A stretch of DNA of 64,000 nt. Source: Candidatus Aenigmatarchaeota archaeon (GTDB lineage Archaea > Aenigmatarchaeota > Aenigmatarchaeia > CG10238-14 > SCSR01). Position numbers and translations under genes: made by a program. How positions within the stretch are numbered: position 1 is the stretch's first letter; each line of letters starts with the position of its first letter. The DNA is taken from contig JACRAE010000006.1 in NCBI GenBank assembly GCA_016213525.1, forward strand, positions 16,691 through 80,690, read 5' to 3'. The notes beneath the pieces were generated by a model, which was not told the DNA's origin, ran no database searches, and saw only the letters and a list, made by a program, of their open reading frames with translations. Below, one piece after another: positions 10,561 through 62,859 of the stretch.

Positions 10561-10680
10561 GGGAGGGTAGCTTAGCCTGGTTGGAGCGATCGACTTATAT
10601 GTCGACTAAGCGCCTGTCGCATGCTCTTGGGCATCGACTAGGAAATCGATAGGTCGCGGGTTCAAATCCCGCCCTTCCCA
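10561..10680 (+). tRNA. tRNA-Ile (anticodon TAT) with a ~45-nt intron in the anticodon loop
   Basis: Cloverleaf read by eye. Acceptor GGGAGGG/CCTTCCC, D-arm GCTT-AGCCTGGTTG-GAGC, anticodon stem ATCGA/TCGAT, loop CTTATA-[intron]-A, T-arm GCGGG-TTCAAAT-CCCGC, discriminator A. A TATA-like ATATTAAAT lies ~25 nt upstream. Confidence 0.7.
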
Positions 10681-25171: not shown

Positions 25172-28100
25172 CTATTTCGCGACCTGCCTTAATACGATTA
25201 GCCCGTTCCTTCCCGCGGCGTCCGAGAGGAGCACGTTGAAGGTGTAGACCTTACCGGAAACCAGGCACGGCTCAAGGGATATGTCCCAGAAACCGTTCGA
25301 GAACGCGGTCGAGTTCGTATTCTGTGTCCCCTCAACTTCCACCCTCACAGTGCCGGACGATGAGAACGAGCCCGACGCCGGGTCGGTCACCGTGCCGGTC
25401 AGCCTCCATTTCTGCGCCGCGCACGTCGTCTGAGGAGGCAGAGATGATGAGCCAAAGATTCTAGATACGAAGTATCCAGACTTGCCGTTCGTGTCGTTGA
25501 CGAATATACCGAGCGTGAATCCGGTGTTGTTGAGGTCGGTCCTCGAGTAAATAGGAATGCTCCACTGAGCCCCGCTTATCGTCGCCGATCCGGAATCTCC
25601 GGTCTCGAGTATCGTGGCAGTCGCAATGCCGCTCGTCATCTGCAATCCGGTCAGTGAGTACAGGGACCTAGCCGTGATTTCTATCGTCGAGAGTACTTGC
25701 TCTAGTTGGGCGCTCAGGTTCTGGTAGGACGTGACGTTCAGGGACGTCGAGTACGGGAAGTAGCCGCTCTTGCTGGCCGATATGACGTAGTTCGAGAAGT
25801 ACAGGTAGCCGGAAGTCTGGTTGTATGTTCCATTAGCCATGAACTCGGAGAGGAGCTGCGTCGGTATCTGGCCCGTCGAGTTCGTGGTAGCGGAGAAGTT
25901 CGAGGACGGGTTGTCCGTGTTTGCTACTGATGCGGTGTCGTTCCCATAGATGAGGGCTCCGTTCACTGCATTGTTAGATTGGTCTCTGACAACGGCGTTC
26001 ATTCTGTGTTGGACGAATAGTTTGGTGGATGTTGAGGCCCCGTTGTAGGGGAAAGTTATTGCCGATCGGTTGAAGGTCGCGTTGACGAGGTATCCGTATT
26101 TACTCGATGAAACCCCGCCCAGAGCCAAGCTGCTTTTTCCCGGGAGGTTCGTGATGTTTATGTCGTAGAATGTGTTGTTGTTCGAATCGTAAATTATCAT
26201 GCCAGAGTTTGTGACGCCGGTGTTAGTCGCTTTGACCATGTTGATTATGTCCCTGTAGACGACGTTGTTGCTGCCGCTGAAATATTCTCCCACTACCAAG
26301 TCCGTGCCGCCGACATTTTCAGTGACGGTCATATTGTTGCCCACCAGGGCGTTGTTGCTGCCGCTCACGTATATCCCATATTGCCACCCGGTAATTCCCA
26401 CGGTGTTGTTTAACACGCTGTTCCAAGAAGTCTCGATGTATATGCCGGAGTTTCCGGGGCTTCCCTGGCAGGACACGAGAAGATTCCCTATGACGATGGT
26501 TGAGTTGGCGCTGGACTCTAGATGTATGCAGGCATTGGCGGAGTTCTGATAGCCAGACGTCCTGATTTCATTATAACCTATCATGTTTTTGGTGGAACCT
26601 GACGATCCAGTCACGTATACGCCCTTGTCGTTGTAGTTCCCAGAGGCTGTTATGTTGTTGTAGGTGAAGTTGTTGGAGCCGGAGGATGATATCAGTATAG
26701 CCTCGTTTGTGTTGGTGCCGTTCGTGGATATGTTGTTTAAGGAAAATACGTTTGAATTGGAAGATGAGAAGAGATAGATTCCGTTGTTCCCAGATGAGGC
26801 ACCATTCGTCGATATTGTGTTTTGGGTGAAATTGTTACCGGAGCTGCTCTGGACGTAAATCCCTAAATTACCGCCACCCGAATTGACGCCCACTGATATG
26901 ATATTCTGTTGTATCGTGTTGTTATCGTCACCGCCATGTAGCCTTATGGCGATGTTGTTGTCACCGCCCGCAATGTTTATGGTGTTGTTCTCTATCCTAC
27001 CAGAAACGGACCCAGTGTAGTAGTGGACACCGTGTCCATAATTGCCCGAGCCCGTGTTGTTTATGACATTGTTGTATACAGTGGCATTTACTGATGTCAC
27101 ATAGACGGAGAAGAGGCTGGAAGTAGAGCCGTTGTATAGTATCACCATGTCTTTTACAGTCACATTGTTCGCAGTTATGTAAAGCGGATGACTGGAGTTA
27201 GACCATATCATAGGTCTTGTGGATGCGTTGCTCGTCAGAGTAAGGCCCGTGACGTTCACGGTGACGTTCTCGTTGTACTGGGCGTATTCTATCAGACTCT
27301 GTCCTATCCCGCCATTCCAGAGGATGGAACGTTCGTTGTCGGTGAGAGCCCTGTCCCATATGGAGAACTCATCTATCGTCGAGTTTGTGTATGTAGACTC
27401 GGCCGAGGACGCTATCGTGGGGTATCTGGTGGGAGCCCCAGATATCCCATAGACGGGATTCACACTGCTCGCCGCCTTCAGCTGATTGTCGACGTATATC
27501 CTGGCCCGATTGGAGGAGTTCGAGTCAGTGCTGTCGATGACGAGCGTTACCATGTGGAAGTTCCCGTCCGCTGGCAGGGCGTCCACCGGAGTCTGAAGAC
27601 CCAAAATATCCTGGGTCCCTCTTATATTGACGCCGAGTGTTCTTGTGGACCTCAGCAGCAGTTCAAACCCAGACTCCGAGAAGACTGTCCTGGCGTCGGA
27701 AAATATCGCCGCGCGCGAGCTCGTCGGATACTCGGTGAGCTTTATCCAAAGGTTCATCGACGTCGTCATTGAGCTGCCGCCCTGGTAGTGCAGGAACTCC
27801 CACTTGGTGGTGTTGGACCCCGAATGTGCCTCAGAGTAACCGTAAGGCGCGCCGCTCGCGACATACCAAAACGCACCGCCCAGCTTGCCCGCCGCCCTGG
27901 TGACGTTTGGCCGCACGCTCATGTTGCCGTCGGATCCTATACTCGAACCCGCGTTCAGTGAGCCCGCCATGTTGGTAAGATTTCCATCCGAATTGTCGAA
28001 CATGTAATACGCCTTGATATTGGACATGGATATCCCACTCGCCTTTTTCTCCACCATCACGACCGTCTGGCCGGAAGTGGCGTTGTTTATCGCGGCCTGT

Positions 28101-28996
28101 ATCGTAGGATGGCAGATGCTCGTCTCGTTCACGCATACGGTAGCCTCCGTGACATAGCTGATAATCACAATACCCGAGCCACCGTTACCTCCGGTAGAAG
28201 TTCCGCTTGCGCTACCGCCGCCATCTCCCGTATTTGCGCTTGCTGTAACGCCAGCACAATTCCCACAGGAGCTAGATTTTGCCTCGCCTCCCGTTGACCG
28301 ATTTACCGAGGAGCCTGATATTGAAGACGATAGGCCTACACCACCTGCAATCAAGCTTCCAGTTCCATCGAGACCTATAGAGCCCGCACCACCGCCTGAA
28401 CCACCGGCATTACCATTACAGTTACCGCCATTGTTACCTTGACCGGCTGGCGATGCGGAGCCCGCACCACCACTACAGGTATTTCCTCCTCCCGAACCGC
28501 CACCAGAACCACCGCTACCGCCGCCAAGAGCAGGCGGTCCGCCACCCTCACCGTAACCGCCGCGCCCACCACCAGCCGAGGTTATAGTTGAAAATGTTGA
28601 ATCGGTTCCATAAGCACCATAATCACCAAATACCCCGCCCGACCCGCCGGAACCCACGGTAATTGTATAACTCTGAGAGGTCACAGCAAAATTTGTCCCA
28701 TTTCTATAACCGCCCGCCCCGCCCCCGCCACCGGAACGGCTTGTTGTCGCACCACCGCCTCCACCACCACCCGCAACTACAAGATAATCCACGTTGCCGC
28801 CGCTCGTAACTGTGAACGTCCCGTTAGAAGTGAACGTGTGGATTGTCCTATCGCCATAATACGTAATCGTTCCGCCCGTGGCCCTGACCGCGTCCGCTTC
28901 CGGAACTACGAGGGAAAAGGCCACCAAAAAAGACAGGGCAAAGACCGACGAGAACGCGGTGAGGGAGACTAGGGACGGTGCTGTTCGGCTGCTCAT
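25172..28996 (-). CDS. Giant secreted glycine-rich / parallel beta-helix surface protein (1274 aa)
   Basis: Signal peptide. Gly-rich domain (VVAGGGGGGG...). LamG/ConA-like segment. Many PbH1-like NxT/NxS-rich beta-helix repeats. High density of N-glycosylation sequons. Confidence 0.8.
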   Translation of the reverse strand: MSSRTAPSLVSLTAFSSVFALSFLVAFSLVVPEADAVRATGGTITYYGDRTIHTFTSNGTFTVTSGGNVDYLVVAGGGGGGGATTSRSGGGGGAGGYRNGTNFAVTSQSYTITVGSGGSGGVFGDYGAYGTDSTFSTITSAGGGRGGYGEGGGPPALGGGSGGSGGGSGGGNTCSGGAGSASPAGQGNNGGNCNGNAGGSGGGAGSIGLDGTGSLIAGGVGLSSSISGSSVNRSTGGEAKSSSCGNCAGVTASANTGDGGGSASGTSTGGNGGSGIVIISYVTEATVCVNETSICHPTIQAAINNATSGQTVVMVEKKASGISMSNIKAYYMFDNSDGNLTNMAGSLNAGSSIGSDGNMSVRPNVTRAAGKLGGAFWYVASGAPYGYSEAHSGSNTTKWEFLHYQGGSSMTTSMNLWIKLTEYPTSSRAAIFSDARTVFSESGFELLLRSTRTLGVNIRGTQDILGLQTPVDALPADGNFHMVTLVIDSTDSNSSNRARIYVDNQLKAASSVNPVYGISGAPTRYPTIASSAESTYTNSTIDEFSIWDRALTDNERSILWNGGIGQSLIEYAQYNENVTVNVTGLTLTSNASTRPMIWSNSSHPLYITANNVTVKDMVILYNGSTSSLFSVYVTSVNATVYNNVINNTGSGNYGHGVHYYTGSVSGRIENNTINIAGGDNNIAIRLHGGDDNNTIQQNIISVGVNSGGGNLGIYVQSSSGNNFTQNTISTNGASSGNNGIYLFSSSNSNVFSLNNISTNGTNTNEAILISSSGSNNFTYNNITASGNYNDKGVYVTGSSGSTKNMIGYNEIRTSGYQNSANACIHLESSANSTIVIGNLLVSCQGSPGNSGIYIETSWNSVLNNTVGITGWQYGIYVSGSNNALVGNNMTVTENVGGTDLVVGEYFSGSNNVVYRDIINMVKATNTGVTNSGMIIYDSNNNTFYDINITNLPGKSSLALGGVSSSKYGYLVNATFNRSAITFPYNGASTSTKLFVQHRMNAVVRDQSNNAVNGALIYGNDTASVANTDNPSSNFSATTNSTGQIPTQLLSEFMANGTYNQTSGYLYFSNYVISASKSGYFPYSTSLNVTSYQNLSAQLEQVLSTIEITARSLYSLTGLQMTSGIATATILETGDSGSATISGAQWSIPIYSRTDLNNTGFTLGIFVNDTNGKSGYFVSRIFGSSSLPPQTTCAAQKWRLTGTVTDPASGSFSSSGTVRVEVEGTQNTNSTAFSNGFWDISLEPCLVSGKVYTFNVLLSDAAGRNGLIVLRQVAK

Positions 28997-41187: not shown

Positions 41188-41281
41188 GGGCCCGTAGCTC
41201 AGCTTGGATAGAGCGGCAGACTTCTAGACCCGAGAGGGTGGAGAGATCTGAAGGTCGAGGGTTCAAATCCCTCCGGGCTCA
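41188..41281 (+). tRNA. tRNA-Arg (anticodon TCT) with a ~19-nt intron
   Basis: Acceptor GGGCCCG/CGGGCTC. D-arm GCTC-AGCTTGGATA-GAGC. Anticodon stem GCAGA. Loop CTTCTA + intron. T-arm GAGGG-TTCAAAT-CCCTC. Purine-purine pair at 27:43. TATA-like TAATTTAAT upstream. Confidence 0.7.
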
Positions 41282-51528: not shown

Positions 51529-53817
51529 ATGAAGTACGTCCTGTGGTTCGAGCAGATATCCAGGGACGACGTCCCGAAGGCCGGTGGGAAGGGCGCCAAC
51601 CTTGGCGAGATGTTCGGCGCTGGCATGCCCGTGCCGCCAGGGTTCGTTGTCACGACGACGGCGTTCGACAAGCTCATGAAGATCGGCGGCCTGGGAGAGA
51701 AGATAGACCAGATAATCAAGAGGACCAACGTCGAGGACACTGGGGCGCTGTTCAATGCGTCCAAGGCGATAAAGGAGATGATAGTGTCCCAGGAGATGCC
51801 GGACGACGTGAAGGCCGAGGTTGCGGACTCGTACAAGACTCTCTCTTATGACGACAAGGTGCAGGACGCCAAGATGGCATCCCTCATGTCCGCCGGCGCC
51901 GACATGGCCTTCGTGGCGGTGAGGAGCTCCGCCACGGCAGAGGACCTGCCGGGCGCGTCTTTCGCGGGCCAGCAGGCGACGTTCCTCAACGTGAGGGGCA
52001 CGAAGGACCTCCTGCAGTCGGTCAGGGAGTGCTGGGCCTCGCTCTTCGAGCCGAGGGCTATATTCTACAGGTCGAAGAACAAGTTCGGCAGCGCGAGCAT
52101 AGCAGTCGTTGTGCAGAGAATGGTCAACTCGGACAAGTCCGGCATAATGTTCACGACGGATCCCGTGTCGGGCGACGACAGCATAATCATCGAGGCGACC
52201 TGGGGACTCGGCGAGTACATCGTTTTAGGCGAGGTCTCCCCGGACCACTATATAATAGACAAGCAAACCGACTCCGTGAGGGACATGAAGATTGGGAGGA
52301 AGGAGAAGGCGCTCGTGAGGGACCCGAAGACCGGCAAGTCCGTCGAGTGGATAATCCCGCGCGACAAGTCCGAGGCCGAGGTGCTGACGGCCGACGAGCT
52401 CGCTAAGCTCATCAGGTACGGCCACATGCTGGAGGAGCACTACGACCACGCGCAGGATGTGGAGTTTGCGATTGAGAAGGGTGTGGTTAGGATAGTCCAG
52501 ACCAGGGCCGTCACGACGAAGGGGAAGAAGAGCGACGTGAAGATAGAGGGCAGGGAGCTGGTACGCGGCAGGGGAGCCTCGCCCGGCATCGCCACGGGCA
52601 AGGTCAAGATTGTGAGGGGCATGGAGGACATAGAGAAGATAATGAAGGGCGACATCCTGGTAACCGTGATGACATCCCCCGATCTCGTGCCCGCGATGAG
52701 CAGGTCCGGCGCCATAGTCACGGACAACGGCGGGTCGAACTGCCACGCCGCGATAGTGTCGAGGGAGATGGGGATACCGGCCATAGTCGGCACGGAGACC
52801 GCGACCTCGGTCCTGAAGGAGGGCGAGCTCGTCACGGTCGACGCCTACTCTGGGATAGTGTACGAGGGCTCCGTAGCGGTCGACAAGCCCGATATGCTGG
52901 ACCTCGGCGAGACCGGCGAGACGAGGACTAAGGTGAAGGTCAACATGGTCTTTGCGGACAAGCTGGAGGTCGCCTCAAAGACCGATGGTGTGGGGCTGCT
53001 GAGGATCGAGCACATGATAACGAAGTTCGGCGTGCATCCCGCCAAGCTCATGCGCGAGGGTAGGAGGGAGGAGTATGTCAATCTTTTGGTGGATGGGATA
53101 AGGCCCATAGCAGAGGCCTACAGTCCGAAGCCCGTGTGGGTCCGCACTTTGGACGCGAGGAGCGACGAGTTCAGGCACCTGCAGGGAGGGGAGGACGAGC
53201 CGCACGAGGACAACCCGATGCTCGGCTGGCACGGCCTCAGGAGGAGCCTCGACGAGCCCGAGCTCTTCAAGGCCGAGCTCGAGGCGATCAAGAGGCTGCA
53301 CGGCGAGGGCCTGACGAACGTCAGGGCCGAGATACCCTTCGTGATCAGCGTCGAGGAGTTGAGGAGGGCGAACCAGATTGCGGCGGAGGTCGGGATGGGC
53401 GAGGGATTCAAGTTCGGCCTCATGGTGGAGACGCCGGCCTGCGCCCTCGACATCGAGGAGTTCTGCAGGGAGGGCATAGAGTTCGCGAGCTTCGGCACGA
53501 ACGACCTCACCCAGCTGACTCTGGGGATGGACAGGAACAACGAGAAGATAATGAACATAGGGTCCGAGTTCCACCCGTCCGTCATCAGGCAGATGAAGGA
53601 AGTGATTGAGGTTTGCGCCCGCTATGGGGTGGAGAGCTCGATATGCGGCGAGGCGGGGAGCAGCCCCGAGATGGCGAAGATACTCGTGAGGGCGGGGATT
53701 AAGAGCGTGTCCTGCAACATCGACGCGATAGACAAGATAAGGGCGGCGGTCTATCAGGCGGAGAGAGAATCGGGCTATTCGGAGAGACCTTCGGAACTGT
53801 TCACTGAAATTGTATGA
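51529..53817 (+). CDS. ppsA: Phosphoenolpyruvate synthase
   Basis: PPDK/PEPS N-terminal ATP-grasp. Phospho-His motif GGSNCHAAIVSRE. C-terminal PEP-utilising TIM barrel with catalytic Cys (ICGEAG). Confidence 0.95.
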   Translation: MKYVLWFEQISRDDVPKAGGKGANLGEMFGAGMPVPPGFVVTTTAFDKLMKIGGLGEKIDQIIKRTNVEDTGALFNASKAIKEMIVSQEMPDDVKAEVADSYKTLSYDDKVQDAKMASLMSAGADMAFVAVRSSATAEDLPGASFAGQQATFLNVRGTKDLLQSVRECWASLFEPRAIFYRSKNKFGSASIAVVVQRMVNSDKSGIMFTTDPVSGDDSIIIEATWGLGEYIVLGEVSPDHYIIDKQTDSVRDMKIGRKEKALVRDPKTGKSVEWIIPRDKSEAEVLTADELAKLIRYGHMLEEHYDHAQDVEFAIEKGVVRIVQTRAVTTKGKKSDVKIEGRELVRGRGASPGIATGKVKIVRGMEDIEKIMKGDILVTVMTSPDLVPAMSRSGAIVTDNGGSNCHAAIVSREMGIPAIVGTETATSVLKEGELVTVDAYSGIVYEGSVAVDKPDMLDLGETGETRTKVKVNMVFADKLEVASKTDGVGLLRIEHMITKFGVHPAKLMREGRREEYVNLLVDGIRPIAEAYSPKPVWVRTLDARSDEFRHLQGGEDEPHEDNPMLGWHGLRRSLDEPELFKAELEAIKRLHGEGLTNVRAEIPFVISVEELRRANQIAAEVGMGEGFKFGLMVETPACALDIEEFCREGIEFASFGTNDLTQLTLGMDRNNEKIMNIGSEFHPSVIRQMKEVIEVCARYGVESSICGEAGSSPEMAKILVRAGIKSVSCNIDAIDKIRAAVYQAERESGYSERPSELFTEIV

Positions 53818-54205
53818 TGCTGTCCCGATTGTCCGACTCCATCAGCTTCATCAGGCTCTTCATGTTGCTCGTTCCCATGATATTTTTCACATAGGAATCC
53901 TTGTCGTTCGCGCCCCTCCTGCCCTCCTCCTCGGCCGCCATGAGCCTCGGCAGGTATTTTTTTATCGTCGACGCCTTGTACGGGCCGGCGAGATTCTGGT
54001 ACCCGTCGTACGACTTCACAATGAGGTTGAACTCTTGGTATTCCCCTATGTTCTTGCTTTCCATGTTATCTTCGAACGCGTTCAGGGGGTATGTAAAGTT
54101 GTGGCCGAGCTTAGGCATTGAGCACAGTATGAAGGAGGAGTTTTTCTGGACGTTCCTGCCCTGGCCAAGATAGCCGTGCTTGAGCTCCATGAACCGATAA
54201 TCCAA
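53801..54205 (-). CDS. Hypothetical protein
   Basis: TTG-start ORF. No motif recognised. Confidence 0.3.
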   Translation of the reverse strand: MDYRFMELKHGYLGQGRNVQKNSSFILCSMPKLGHNFTYPLNAFEDNMESKNIGEYQEFNLIVKSYDGYQNLAGPYKASTIKKYLPRLMAAEEEGRRGANDKDSYVKNIMGTSNMKSLMKLMESDNRDSIIQFQ

Positions 54206-54248
54206 ATCAGTCTTTATAAGATTTTCCGACGTTGTTATAATTCAGGAG

Positions 54249-54345
54249 AGCCTCAACTGGGATTTGAACCCAGGACCCCTTCCTTACCATGGAATTTAGC
54301 TAGTTTTTCCTAACTATGTGCTCTACCGGGCTGAGCTATTGAGGC
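54249..54345 (-). tRNA. tRNA-Thr (anticodon GGT) with a ~23-nt intron at a non-canonical position (26/27)
   Basis: Minus-strand read. GCCTCAA-TA-GCTC-AGCCCGGTA-GAGC-A-[CATAGTTAGGAAAAACTAGCTAA]-ATTCC-ATGGTAA-GGAAG-GGGTC-CTGGG-TTCAAAT-CCCAG-TTGAGGC-T. No canonical anticodon arm is possible without removing the insert. Coordinates ±1. Confidence 0.55.
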
Positions 54346-54386
54346 TTAATTCAAATTTTGAATTTCACAGTTTTTAAATGCTGTTT

Positions 54387-54641
54387 TTAATCTGGCTCCA
54401 GGTAAAGGTGGTCTTCCAGATGTACCACACCGTTTGTCTTGATGGCGACCTGAATGCCCTTCTTGGCGGAGTCGGCGCTCTTGCCGTCGACCTGAATGCT
54501 TTCCACGGTCTGCACGAGGTCCGTGTTGGGGCCCTCGAATGACACCCTGTCCCCGACGGAGAAGTCCGATTCGACGTCCACGACGGCCACCCCTATCTTC
54601 GGGTAGAAGTGCCTGACTATGCCCACGAGCCTCTTCGCCAT
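54387..54641 (-). CDS. Small beta-barrel protein (EF-Tu domain 2-like)
   Basis: MAKRLVGIVRHFYPKIGVAVVDV..VGDRVSFEG pattern of small archaeal beta-barrel proteins. Track ORF extended upstream with a TTG start. Confidence 0.35.
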   Translation of the reverse strand: MAKRLVGIVRHFYPKIGVAVVDVESDFSVGDRVSFEGPNTDLVQTVESIQVDGKSADSAKKGIQVAIKTNGVVHLEDHLYLEPD

Positions 54642-55113
54642 GTACAAACCTTGTCTTGCAATATTCATTAGCTTGTGCGCCGAATATGTTTGTATGAAGC
54701 TCTCGCCCGCCAAGATGCTCATCTGGGTCATGGCCGTCGTCGTGCTTGCTGTCGTCTTCATACAGCCCGGCAGCGAGACCGGCAAGTACGTCTACCAGGT
54801 GGAGACGATAGACAACAAGTGCACGTTCGACGAGTACCAGCAGCAGGACATACGAGCCGTCGGGGACTCCATATTGATTGTGATGCCCATACAGACACCG
54901 ACGCCCTGCTACGAGGTCCAAGGATCGGTCGACTTCTTCAGGAGCGACATAACCGTCAACCTGCAGACGAAGAAGAGGGCTGAGGCGTGCACGGCAGAGT
55001 GCGTCGGGGTGACCGTGGCGAGGGTCGTGATATCCAACCTCGACTCCGGGACTTACGGCCTGCAGATCAACGCGCCGGACAAGTCCGTCAGGACCAGCGT
55101 CAAGGTGAAGTAG
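54619..55113 (+). CDS. Membrane-anchored/secreted Cys-containing hypothetical protein
   Basis: Hydrophobic N-terminus (MLIWVMAVVVLAVVF). Four Cys. Likely internal start. Confidence 0.35.
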   Translation: MPTSLFAMYKPCLAIFISLCAEYVCMKLSPAKMLIWVMAVVVLAVVFIQPGSETGKYVYQVETIDNKCTFDEYQQQDIRAVGDSILIVMPIQTPTPCYEVQGSVDFFRSDITVNLQTKKRAEACTAECVGVTVARVVISNLDSGTYGLQINAPDKSVRTSVKVK

Positions 55114-55566
55114 TTGGTCAAGGAAGGCCAGAAGGCGCCCGCCTTCGCGCTGCCCGACGAGTCTGGATTCGATGTCGCCCTCTCAGACTTCGCGGGCAAG
55201 AGGATTGTCCTCTACTTCTACCCGCGCGACATGACGCCGGGATGCACGATAGAGGCCTGCAGCTTCCGAGACTACCATGCCAAGTTCAAGGAGAGGGGCG
55301 CCGTAATTTTGGGGGTGAGCACCGACGGTCAGAGGTCCCACGCGAAGTTCAAGGAGGCGCACGGACTGCCCTTCGCATTGCTGAGCGACAAGTCGGCCTC
55401 GGTCTGCAGGAAGTACGGTGTCTGGAAGAAGAAAAAATTCATGGGCAAGGAGTACATGGGGATAGAGAGGACGACTTTCGTGATAGACGAGGCGGGCAAG
55501 ATATCCAAGATATTCAAGAGGGTGCAGCCGCTCGGCCACTGGAAGGAAATATTGGCCCTACTATGA
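55114..55566 (+). CDS. bcp: Peroxiredoxin Bcp (thiol peroxidase)
   Basis: FYPRDMTPGCTIEAC peroxidatic-Cys motif. TTG start. Confidence 0.85.
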   Translation: MVKEGQKAPAFALPDESGFDVALSDFAGKRIVLYFYPRDMTPGCTIEACSFRDYHAKFKERGAVILGVSTDGQRSHAKFKEAHGLPFALLSDKSASVCRKYGVWKKKKFMGKEYMGIERTTFVIDEAGKISKIFKRVQPLGHWKEILALL

Positions 55567-55701
55567 CGTGTACCTGACCAGCTCTATGTCGCATCCCCTA
55601 CATACGCTGCACTTCATGCACTCGTGGTTCCCTATGCAGGCTATCGGGTTCTCTATCCTGGTCTTGCAGTCCTTGCAGCGCCATTCGACCGTCTTTCCCA
55701 T
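55561..55701 (-). CDS. Small Cys-rich zinc-ribbon ORF B (46 aa)
   Basis: MGKTVEWRCKDCK..CIGNHECMKCSVCRGC. Several CxxC motifs. High GC3. It is the plausible 3' part of track ORF 55561–55887. Confidence 0.35.
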   Translation of the reverse strand: MGKTVEWRCKDCKTRIENPIACIGNHECMKCSVCRGCDIELVRYTS

Positions 55702-61750: not shown

Positions 61751-62740
61751 ACGTCTATGGGAGAAACTTTTAGGGAGCATTATCATTTTATAATTCCGTG
61801 CTCCAAATCATATTTGAAGGGGTAAATCTCCTCGTTTTTACAATTTGGGCACAACGTTACCAGATATTCCTTGATTACATTGTTTTTTTGTAGTATACTG
61901 TAGCTATACCACACCTGTAATTCTCTATGAATTATGTTATTACAATCGACACAACGGAATATTTTTTTCTCAATAAATGTGTTTTTATTTTTCTTAATAG
62001 AATCTTTACCAAACCAAAATAAATTTATTCTTTCGTTACAAAACATGCATTTACCGTTATATTCATATTCTAAAGCTCCAAAAATATTGTTTTGTGTTGA
62101 TATTGATTTTTCGTTTCCTAATGATTTTGCTAACTCGCGTAACATAGCGGTTAATACGCCAATTTTATCGTTTTTTACGCCTACTTTTCGAATATACCAA
62201 TTAACTTTTTTATGATTAATCAAGTGTTTACAATTCCAACATTTCATATCGAATTGTTTTAATGATATCATGTAAACTATAATCGCCCTATGGATTTGTG
62301 GGTATATAAAAAACGCTACATTAGGAAAACTTCCATGCTACCTGCGGGAACTTCAATTAGGGAATTAAAAGGAGTATTATTATAGTTTCTTCTTCGGAAC
62401 AGGACCCGTTAGCTTAACATGGCATTTTTTACATATGACCATCAAATTACTTTCTCTTGGGTCTGACGGATCGTAGTTTTTATGGTGGAAGTCAAACTTG
62501 ATGTTGAACAACAAGGTACCACAGTTCTCACACTTTCCCCTAGACCGTGCCATAATTCTTTTTTGTAACCCAAATGGGATTTTAGTTCTTTTTTTCCTTA
62601 TTTTTGGTTCTATTTCAGGTTTCTTGTCAAGAGACTTCTCATATTCCTCAATCCAGTCCATAATGCTGCCCTTTTCAGGTTTGATTGTCAGACTCATAAT
62701 TTGTCTGTGACTTTCCATTCTTTTAAATATTTCTCTAATA
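61751..62740. mobile_element. ~1 kb low-GC island integrated at the tRNA-Glu 3' end (HNH endonuclease + Zn-finger ORF, no recombinase)
   Basis: Abrupt drop to roughly 30% GC between two 18-bp direct repeats. Two minus-strand ORFs. Boundary exactly at the tRNA discriminator. Confidence 0.65.
61783..62271 (-). CDS. Cys-rich zinc-finger protein (possible second HNH-like nuclease) in the AT-rich island
   Basis: Four CxxC motifs (CWNC, CMFC, CVDC, CPNC) with His/Asn between them. AT-rich codon usage unlike the host genes. Confidence 0.45.
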   Translation of the reverse strand: MISLKQFDMKCWNCKHLINHKKVNWYIRKVGVKNDKIGVLTAMLRELAKSLGNEKSISTQNNIFGALEYEYNGKCMFCNERINLFWFGKDSIKKNKNTFIEKKIFRCVDCNNIIHRELQVWYSYSILQKNNVIKEYLVTLCPNCKNEEIYPFKYDLEHGIIK

Positions 62741-62745
62741 GTCAT
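62380..62745 (-). CDS. HNH endonuclease
   Basis: GKCENCG..FDFHHKN..N..VICKKCH. Canonical HNH zinc-binding motif. ATG overlaps the tRNA-Glu discriminator. Confidence 0.7.
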   Translation of the reverse strand: MTIREIFKRMESHRQIMSLTIKPEKGSIMDWIEEYEKSLDKKPEIEPKIRKKRTKIPFGLQKRIMARSRGKCENCGTLLFNIKFDFHHKNYDPSDPRESNLMVICKKCHVKLTGPVPKKKL

Positions 62746-62758
62746 GCTCCCTGCGGGA
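62741..62758. repeat. Direct repeat B (GTCATGCTCCCTGCGGGA) spanning the tRNA-Glu 3' end and the HNH start codon
   Basis: Pairs with 61733–61750. Confidence 0.8.
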
Positions 62759-62859
62759 TTTGAACCCGCGTTTCCACCTTGCTTCTCTCATCCGATGTGT
62801 CAAATCTTTCGAAGTCAATCGAAAGGGTGGAGTCCTTGACCGGGCTAGACGAAGGGAAC
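62745..62859 (-). tRNA. tRNA-Glu (anticodon TTC) with a ~40-nt intron
   Basis: GTTCCCT-TC-GTCT-AGCCCGGTCAA-GGAC-T-CCACC-CTTTCGA-[40-nt intron]-GGTGG-AAAC-GCGGG-TTCAAAT-CCCGC-AGGGAGC-A. Confidence 0.65.

Follow-up and report, generated by a model that had tools for sequence, protein, structure and literature searches.

A tRNA-Thr(GGU) gene of an Aenigmatarchaeota archaeon with a probable bulge-helix-bulge intron between positions 27 and 28

On a contig of an archaeon labelled Aenigmatarchaeota, a tRNA-Thr(GGU) gene carries extra nucleotides between its D-arm and its anticodon arm. Is this insertion an intron that is removed from the precursor of a working tRNA and, if so, at which bases is it cut out? 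Bulge-helix-bulge (BHB) introns at non-canonical sites form a well-known class in Thermoproteales, Nanoarchaeota/DPANN, Thaumarchaeota and other archaea. In this work, we focused on the limits of the insertion, on the predicted fold of its junctions and on its distribution among relatives of the host. The window is the whole stretch of 64,000 nucleotides that was analysed. The sequences compared make it very probable that the locus is a working archaeal gene for tRNA-Thr(GGU), and that the 23 nt inserted between positions 27 and 28, i.e. in the 5' strand of the anticodon stem, are a BHB-type intron removed by protein enzymes.

The gene and its surroundings

The segment at 54249..54345 (minus strand, as for all features of this gene given below) matches the Rfam tRNA model RF00005 end to end (44.3 bits, where the gathering score is 29), and the alignment leaves a block of 38 nt unaligned where 15 nt are expected. 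The whole precursor, 97 nt long, reads 5' to 3' GCCUCAA UA GCUC AGCCCGGUA GAGC A C AUAGUUAGGAAAAACUAGCUAAA UUCC AUGGUAA GGAAG GGGUC CUGGG UUCAAAU CCCAG UUGAGGC U; the discriminator U73 lies at 54249 and no CCA is encoded. The anticodon GGU (positions 34-36, 54286..54288), read from the sequence, sits in a loop AUGGUAA in which U33, GGU and A37 are present. The Rfam match and this loop bear out the first-pass annotation of the segment as a tRNA-Thr(GGT) gene, and the Rfam alignment, in which the variable loop has 5 nt, likewise agrees with its description of acceptor, D-arm, variable loop and T-arm as canonical. A putative archaeal TATA-box-like promoter element, TTTAAAAA (54371..54378), lies 26-33 nt upstream of the mature 5' end, and similar elements (TTTTAA or TTTAAG) are found upstream of the gene in two relatives, L122 and L127.

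An NCBI protein with the label Candidatus Aenigmarchaeota archaeon shows 100% identity to the PEP synthase of the window (51529-53817), and the phylum Candidatus Aenigmatarchaeota belongs to the kingdom Nanobdellati, i.e. DPANN. This label is in line with the earlier proposal of a non-canonical intron in a lineage known for such introns. Pfam matches in the window also fit an archaeon (thermosome, class-I LysRS, Cdc6, MCM, RFC, TBP and aIF2-beta). Three further tRNA genes of the window were found with Rfam and the BHB rule described below to carry strict BHB introns at the canonical 37/38 site, i.e. tRNA-Ile(UAU) at 10561-10680 (plus strand, intron of 45 nt), tRNA-Arg(UCU) at 41188-41281 (plus strand) and tRNA-Glu(UUC) at 62745-62859 (minus strand); ARAGORN missed all three. 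In most archaea AUA is read by a CAU tRNA that is modified with agmatidine; tRNA-Ile of the UAU type is known from only a few lineages, e.g. Nanoarchaeum and Korarchaeum.

Other features of the region were recorded. A weak match to a C/D-box small RNA (RF00341; E 0.27, its 28.7 bits falling short of the gathering score) at 62216-62277 (minus strand), flanked by a short ORF and the tRNA-Glu gene, may represent an archaeal C/D sRNA. The window encodes a dihydrouridine synthase (Dus, PF01207; 45892-46830, minus strand) as well as AlaRS, LeuRS, class-I LysRS and AspRS, so that the region is rich in tRNA-related genes. A 1274-aa ORF at 25172-28996 (minus strand), whose sole Pfam match is the N-terminal glycine-rich domain PF21722, is probably a large surface protein.

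Limits and history of the intron

Contigs with homologues of the PEP synthase were fetched, their synteny and the Thr tRNA gene downstream were compared, and a neighbour-joining tree was built with the window PEP synthase. The contigs of five homologues (P0003, P0004, P0008, P0010 and P0011), which stop before the tRNA site or lack this site, gave no tRNA gene for the comparison. Across the relatives, the tRNA-Thr(GGU) gene is found in conserved synteny with the PEP synthase and an 83/84-aa gene, and in each relative no tRNA-Thr(GGU) gene other than the one at this site was seen. Intein/LAGLIDADG domains (PF14528, PF14890) are present in PEP synthases from other Aenigmatarchaeota (P0071, P0085 and P0117; ~1180-1270 aa); that of the window is intein-free.

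The syntenic site of L122, which at 90% PEP-synthase identity is the closest relative found, holds a 74-nt intron-less tRNA-Thr(GGU) gene; it reads ...GGUAGAGCAC|UUCCAUGGUAAGGAAG... at the junction and is identical to the window exons except for two D-loop bases. The junction in both L122 and L128 is ...GAGCAC|UUCCAUGG... (GAGCAC|UUCC), and the sole 23-nt deletion that turns the window sequence into this intron-less form is that of AUAGUUAGGAAAAACUAGCUAAA at 54295..54317. Because only its removal yields the L122/L128 junction, we set the intron between C27 and U28. Alignment with the intron-less genes of L122, L128 and L124 gives a 5' exon of tRNA positions 1-27 (54318..54345), which holds the acceptor 5' strand, the D-arm, A26 and C27; the 3' exon, with positions 28-73 (54249..54294), runs from the remainder of the anticodon arm through the variable loop and the T-arm to the acceptor 3' strand. 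A cut at 27/28 restores the C27-G43 pair, and the predicted 74-nt product, which differs from the L122 gene by the same two D-loop bases, regains the canonical cloverleaf. An intron at the canonical 37/38 site gives no acceptable helix, as had been noted before (CAUAG against GGAAG forms 2 of 5 pairs), and a model with a canonical intron is impossible.

The insertion is precisely absent from L122 and L128, and L124 has no intron at 27/28 either. Homologous introns occupy the same site in L125 (GCA_964487955.1; AUAGCUAGAAUCUAGCUCAA, 20 nt), L126 (Logan SRR32573210; AUAGCUAUUCGCUAGCUUAA, 20 nt) and L127 (metagenome contig FKKE01003775.1; AUAGCUGCGAAAGCUAGCUAAA, 22 nt). The last of these is the one further copy found by a metagenome scan with the exon context and a gap of 5-35 nt at 27/28; it represents a further divergent lineage, whose upstream gene is shared with the window locus at ~46-55% amino-acid identity. 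In the PEP-synthase tree the intron is found on both sides of the deepest split (in the window on one side, in L125 and L126 on the other) and is missing in L122, the sister of the window. The simplest history suggested by these sequences would be one old gain in the clade followed by at least three precise losses; lateral spread is possible. The intron had also been proposed as a lineage marker, and it does point to an archaeon of a group rich in disrupted tRNA genes; it does not mark a clade at fine scale or at species level, the closest relative L122 being without it.

A pattern scan for tRNA-Thr genes gave at least 120 matches, mostly bacterial tRNA-Thr genes, the pattern being generic. 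Among the matches listed, the 27/28 intron is absent from six archaeal tRNA-Thr genes (one from Thermoproteota, two from Woesearchaeota and one each from Njordarchaeota, Methanosarcina and Bathyarchaeota). A Woesearchaeota tRNA-Thr(GGU) gene (L022, 3086-3163, minus strand) has an unusually long D-loop of 13 nt, AGCCUCGGUUUUA. When up to 3 mismatches were allowed, no second copy of the intron was found in the window, which thus gives no sign of intron transposition within it. The idea that the intron was born by duplication of exon positions 7-13 (AUAGCUC, similar to the intron ends) was dropped, the similarity being mostly forced by pairing with GAGC.

The surroundings of the gene differ between the window and L122. 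In L122 (5587-6264 and 7646-7975, compared with window 54200-55600), an additional ORF of 225 aa separates the small post-PpsA gene from the tRNA and a Pyr_excise (PF03013) gene is present; the AhpC/peroxiredoxin gene of the window is missing. These differences indicate local gene turnover around the tRNA.

Splice motif and rival readings

A BHB cut rule was set on the three canonical 37/38 introns of the window, i.e. those of tRNA-Ile(UAU), tRNA-Arg(UCU) and tRNA-Glu(UUC). According to this rule, exon bases -6..-3 pair with intron bases L-5..L-2 to form the central helix H, the 5' bulge has the form exon,exon^intron and the 3' bulge the form intron,intron^exon. All three introns obey it, with 4/4 pairs in H, an inner helix h' of 2-5 bp and an outer helix h of 4-6 bp. 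Applied to the Thr intron with its limits at 27/28, the rule gives 3/4 pairs in H and 5 in h', and the cuts that it predicts are the limits set independently by the intron-less orthologues.

In the predicted motif, the exon strand of H is G22 A23 G24 C25 (54320..54323), which is also the 3' strand of the D-stem. It would form three Watson-Crick pairs and a G·A with the intron strand GCUA (54297..54300), which resembles the D-stem 5' strand GCUC. The 5' bulge comprises A26, C27 and the first intron base, A (54317..54319), with a predicted cut between 54318 and 54317; the 3' bulge, or loop, comprises A, A and U28 (54294..54296), with a predicted cut between 54295 and 54294. The inner helix would pair UAGUU (54312..54316) with AACUA (54301..54305). 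Its outer counterpart is reduced to the single pair U29-A21 in all four intron-bearing copies, and in the ViennaRNA folds the 3' site is instead part of a 2x4 internal loop that G18G19/C30C31 close.

The register is exact in 4/4 intron-bearing orthologues, each with two 3-nt bulges and a helix of four positions between them; in L125 the 5' bulge is A26 U27 ^ A. The intron side of H is GCU(C/U/A); its last base makes a terminal G-C pair in L125 and a G·U in L126, and the window and L127 have a G·A there. Standard pairs consequently fill 4/4 positions of H in L125 and L126 (with one G·U in L126), and three Watson-Crick pairs accompany the G·A in the other two. The inner helix, UAG(N)(U)/(A)(N)CUA, has 3-5 bp; at its fourth position the U-A of the window is replaced by C-G in L126 and L127, a compensatory change. 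This comparative support for the BHB helices comes from four homologous sequences with little variation, in which one pair is compensatory and one variable pair is mismatched in 2/4. Among 100,000 shuffles of the window intron, at least 3 pairs in H together with at least 3 in h' arose in the required register in 0.06%, against 0.01-0.1% for the three orthologous introns; over all four introns, the observed H and h' were reached in 0.01-0.12% of trials.

The strict hBHBh' motif, on which narrow-specificity alpha4 and alpha'2 EndAs act, has at least about 2 bp in each of h and h', and the Thr intron has 1 bp in h. Because the outer helix is nearly absent and the window copy has a G·A mismatch, the predicted motif is of the relaxed HBh' type in the nomenclature of PMC5829648, in which a central helix, one proper bulge and the inner helix are present and no outer helix closes the second site. 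A relaxed motif of this kind was what the first-pass annotation had suggested looking for at the junctions.

Folding energies were also considered. Since CUAGCUN, the 3' half of the intron, is a repeat shifted by 4 nt, folding of the intron on itself is also possible. In the window, the minimum-free-energy fold is the cloverleaf with a 7-bp intron hairpin (-32.3 kcal/mol). The BHB conformer, which requires the D-stem to open, lies above the full-length minimum by 5.9 kcal/mol in the window, 3.1 in L127, 4.4 in L125 and 0 in L126. With mini-substrates of 38-41 nt, BHB is the minimum-free-energy fold in L126 and L127, and is not in the window and L125. Thermodynamics alone is thus equivocal; the case for the BHB rests on the exact coincidence of its register with the limits derived from relatives, and on its conservation. 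The conformer that combines the cloverleaf with the intron hairpin was rejected as an EndA substrate, because its splice sites are not 4 bp apart on opposite strands.

How firmly these data fix the splice sites depends on two other registers. The first-pass annotation rightly described a 23-nt insertion separating the D-arm from the anticodon arm, but placed it after position 26 (CAUAG...CUAA); cut out at 26/27, it would leave an anticodon stem AUUCC/GGAAG and a product with ...GAGCAAUUCC... The same number of bases is removed and the same anticodon kept, and the window sequence taken alone separates the two registers only once the BHB rule is applied. The product GAGCA|AUUCC nevertheless disagrees with the GAGCAC|UUCC of the orthologues (L122, L128), which put the cut at 27/28, an A27·G43 mismatch appears, and the BHB is poor (2/4 pairs in H, 1 in h' and 0 in h), all of which makes the 26/27 register extremely improbable. 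It is also very unlikely that EndA cuts the window copy with the 5' site one base further 3' and the 3' site one base further 5', releasing 21 nt. If it did so, two extra A would be bulged in the anticodon stem and the window allele would be partly or wholly defective. This shift draws its appeal from the window and L127, where a G·A stands at the outer end of the central helix: with 3 pairs in H, 4 in h' and 2 in h, it equals or slightly exceeds 27/28 in these two copies, and in a scan of ~2500 possible cut pairs per sequence it ties there. In L125 and L126, on the other hand, 27/28 ranks first and the shifted cuts are clearly worse; their product disagrees with the intron-less orthologues, and the near identity of the window exons to the L122 gene points to a working gene.

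Two further readings deny splicing altogether. The gene could be a tRNA pseudogene disabled by an insertion that is never removed; its Rfam score of 44.3 bits is indeed below that of the intron-less orthologues (64.5-65.6 bits, 65.6 for L122), and ARAGORN leaves it untyped. We judge this highly improbable, as four divergent lineages carry the homologous insertion at one and the same site, each time able to form a BHB, the gene holds the conserved syntenic site described above, and a TATA-like element lies upstream. The exons tell the same story: in the seven orthologues all exon stem cells are paired, and five exon pairs, which fall in the acceptor, anticodon and T stems, show two-sided compensatory changes, with no disruptive ones. 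A decaying pseudogene is ruled out by this pairing and these changes; that the locus might turn out to be a pseudogene, a concern raised with the first annotation, is also answered by the match of the exons to the L122 gene. As judged from the sequences, the exons are under purifying selection and the genomic position is conserved. ARAGORN itself offers a model with no intron, in which the hairpin of the insertion serves as anticodon arm, the true anticodon arm becomes a long variable arm, and the output is 'tRNA-???' with a four-base anticodon GGAA. This can hardly be true, because the identities that it assigns to the intron-bearing orthologues, i.e. Ser(AGA) in L125 (6065-6159), Asn(AUU) in L126 (12244-12338) and Ser(CGA) in L127 (954-1050), conflict with one another for syntenic genes with near-identical bodies. 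Moreover, its loop is without U33 and is not a 7-nt anticodon loop, and the intron-less orthologues are plain tRNA-Thr(GGU) genes, which ARAGORN types as Thr(ggt). A MAG annotated with ARAGORN would seem to be without tRNA-Thr(GGU), an essential tRNA, and to possess bogus isoacceptors, and annotations of L125-L127 could be wrong likewise.

Proposed splicing and comparison with known introns

For the intron at 27/28, the steps of cleavage, ligation and folding can be proposed by analogy with known archaeal systems. In the precursor, the intron 3' segment GCUA would mimic the D-stem strand GCUC and pair with G22-C25 to give the 4-position central helix, and the intron segments UAGUU and AACUA would form the inner helix. 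This would place each splice site in a bulge of 3 nt (AC^A and AA^U) with four base-pair positions between the two, an arrangement that archaeal EndA cuts. Such a relaxed HBh' substrate probably requires an EndA of broad specificity, as the outer helix is nearly missing and the central helix of the window copy has a G·A. Cutting of both bulges would leave a 2',3'-cyclic phosphate and a 5'-OH, and an RNA ligase of the RtcB type, RtcB being the archaeal tRNA exon ligase, would join C27 to U28. The freed 3' strand of the D-stem could then pair with positions 10-13, giving the normal 74-nt cloverleaf.

The relaxed-specificity endonuclease, which the first-pass annotation also proposed, is inferred from the motif and from the literature. 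Efficient cleavage of relaxed motifs is confined to EndAs that have an added loop, and many DPANN lineages combine alpha4 EndAs that have an 'L3' loop with more disrupted tRNA genes (PMC5829648). A phmmer search with the M. jannaschii EndA (sequence matched to PDB 1A79) found no EndA in the window or in 16 related or other archaeal loci, a Pfam scan of 60 predicted window proteins found neither EndA (PF01974/PF02778) nor RtcB, the fetched related loci likewise showed neither gene, and a literature search found no paper on the EndA of Aenigmatarchaeota.

A wider reading joins these observations. The 27/28 intron might be an uncatalogued, clade-wide feature of Aenigmatarchaeota tRNA-Thr(GGU), the palindromic CUAGCUN switching the precursor between an inert self-hairpin and a BHB that hijacks the D-stem, with splicing coupled to, or gating, the folding of the D-arm. 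We consider it rather unlikely that all of this holds. If it did, the survival of the intron with a degenerate central helix would suggest that the possibly homotetrameric DPANN EndA is unusually broad in specificity, and the precise losses, being repeated, would be a record of introns actively removed from DPANN genomes. Whatever the standing of this wider reading, the locus offers a natural series of one intron, with a perfect BHB, with a degraded BHB and, in close relatives, precisely deleted, which is useful for the study of archaeal tRNA intron loss and of the motif decay that a DPANN endonuclease tolerates. The locus also yields a prediction, i.e. that the EndA of Aenigmatarchaeota cuts relaxed HBh' substrates.

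The Thr intron is of the ordinary archaeal tRNA kind, at a rarely reported position, and involves no new mechanism. Non-canonical sites compiled in PMC4090602 (citing Marck & Grosjean 2003 and Sugahara et al. 2008) are 20/21, 22/23, 25/26, 29/30, 30/31, 45/46, 53/54, 56/57 and 59/60 'etc.'; 27/28 is not among the sites named in this list, which ends with that 'etc.', and we do not claim that it is new. Mildly unusual features are the presence of a D-stem strand in H, the competing self-hairpin, the decayed central helix in the window allele and the patchy presence of the intron among close relatives.

Like the introns of the class described in PMC4090602, that of the Thr gene is short, would be spliced by proteins and lies outside 37/38; 3-nt bulges flank a 4-position exon-intron helix, the cloverleaf is restored (here by prediction), and the host lineage is rich in interrupted tRNA genes (4/6 tRNA genes of the window have introns). 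It departs from this class in that the exon half of H is the D-stem 3' strand, which makes the BHB and the D-stem mutually exclusive. The D-loop intron of Methanopyrus kandleri pre-tRNA-Glu(UUC) (Kaneta et al. 2018, PMC5829648) likewise shows a relaxed HBh' motif in the 5' half of the tRNA, with one well-formed bulge and a second site that is poorly closed; motifs of this sort need an EndA of broad specificity for efficient cutting. The tRNA, the position and the phylum differ, however; the M. kandleri tRNA has a canonical intron in addition, whereas the Thr gene has a single intron, and cleavage was tested experimentally for the M. kandleri tRNA, whereas the Thr intron is known from sequence. 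The pre-tRNA-Thr(UGU) of Aeropyrum pernix (Hirata et al. 2011, PMC3241643) is also a Thr isoacceptor with one non-standard intron in its 5' half. A. pernix EndA is sufficient to remove this D-loop intron, at a lower rate than an intron at 37/38 (PMC3241643). There, the substrate of a crenarchaeal (alpha-beta)2 EndA has a full BHB in the D-loop, whereas the present gene has anticodon GGU, an intron at 27/28 and a relaxed motif, in a DPANN host. Finally, the Thr intron obeys the same cut rule as the canonical introns of its own window, and differs from their strict hBHBh' motifs (4/4 pairs in H, 4-6 bp in the outer helix, compatible with the cloverleaf) by 3/4 pairs in H, an outer helix of 1 bp and a strand borrowed from the D-stem.
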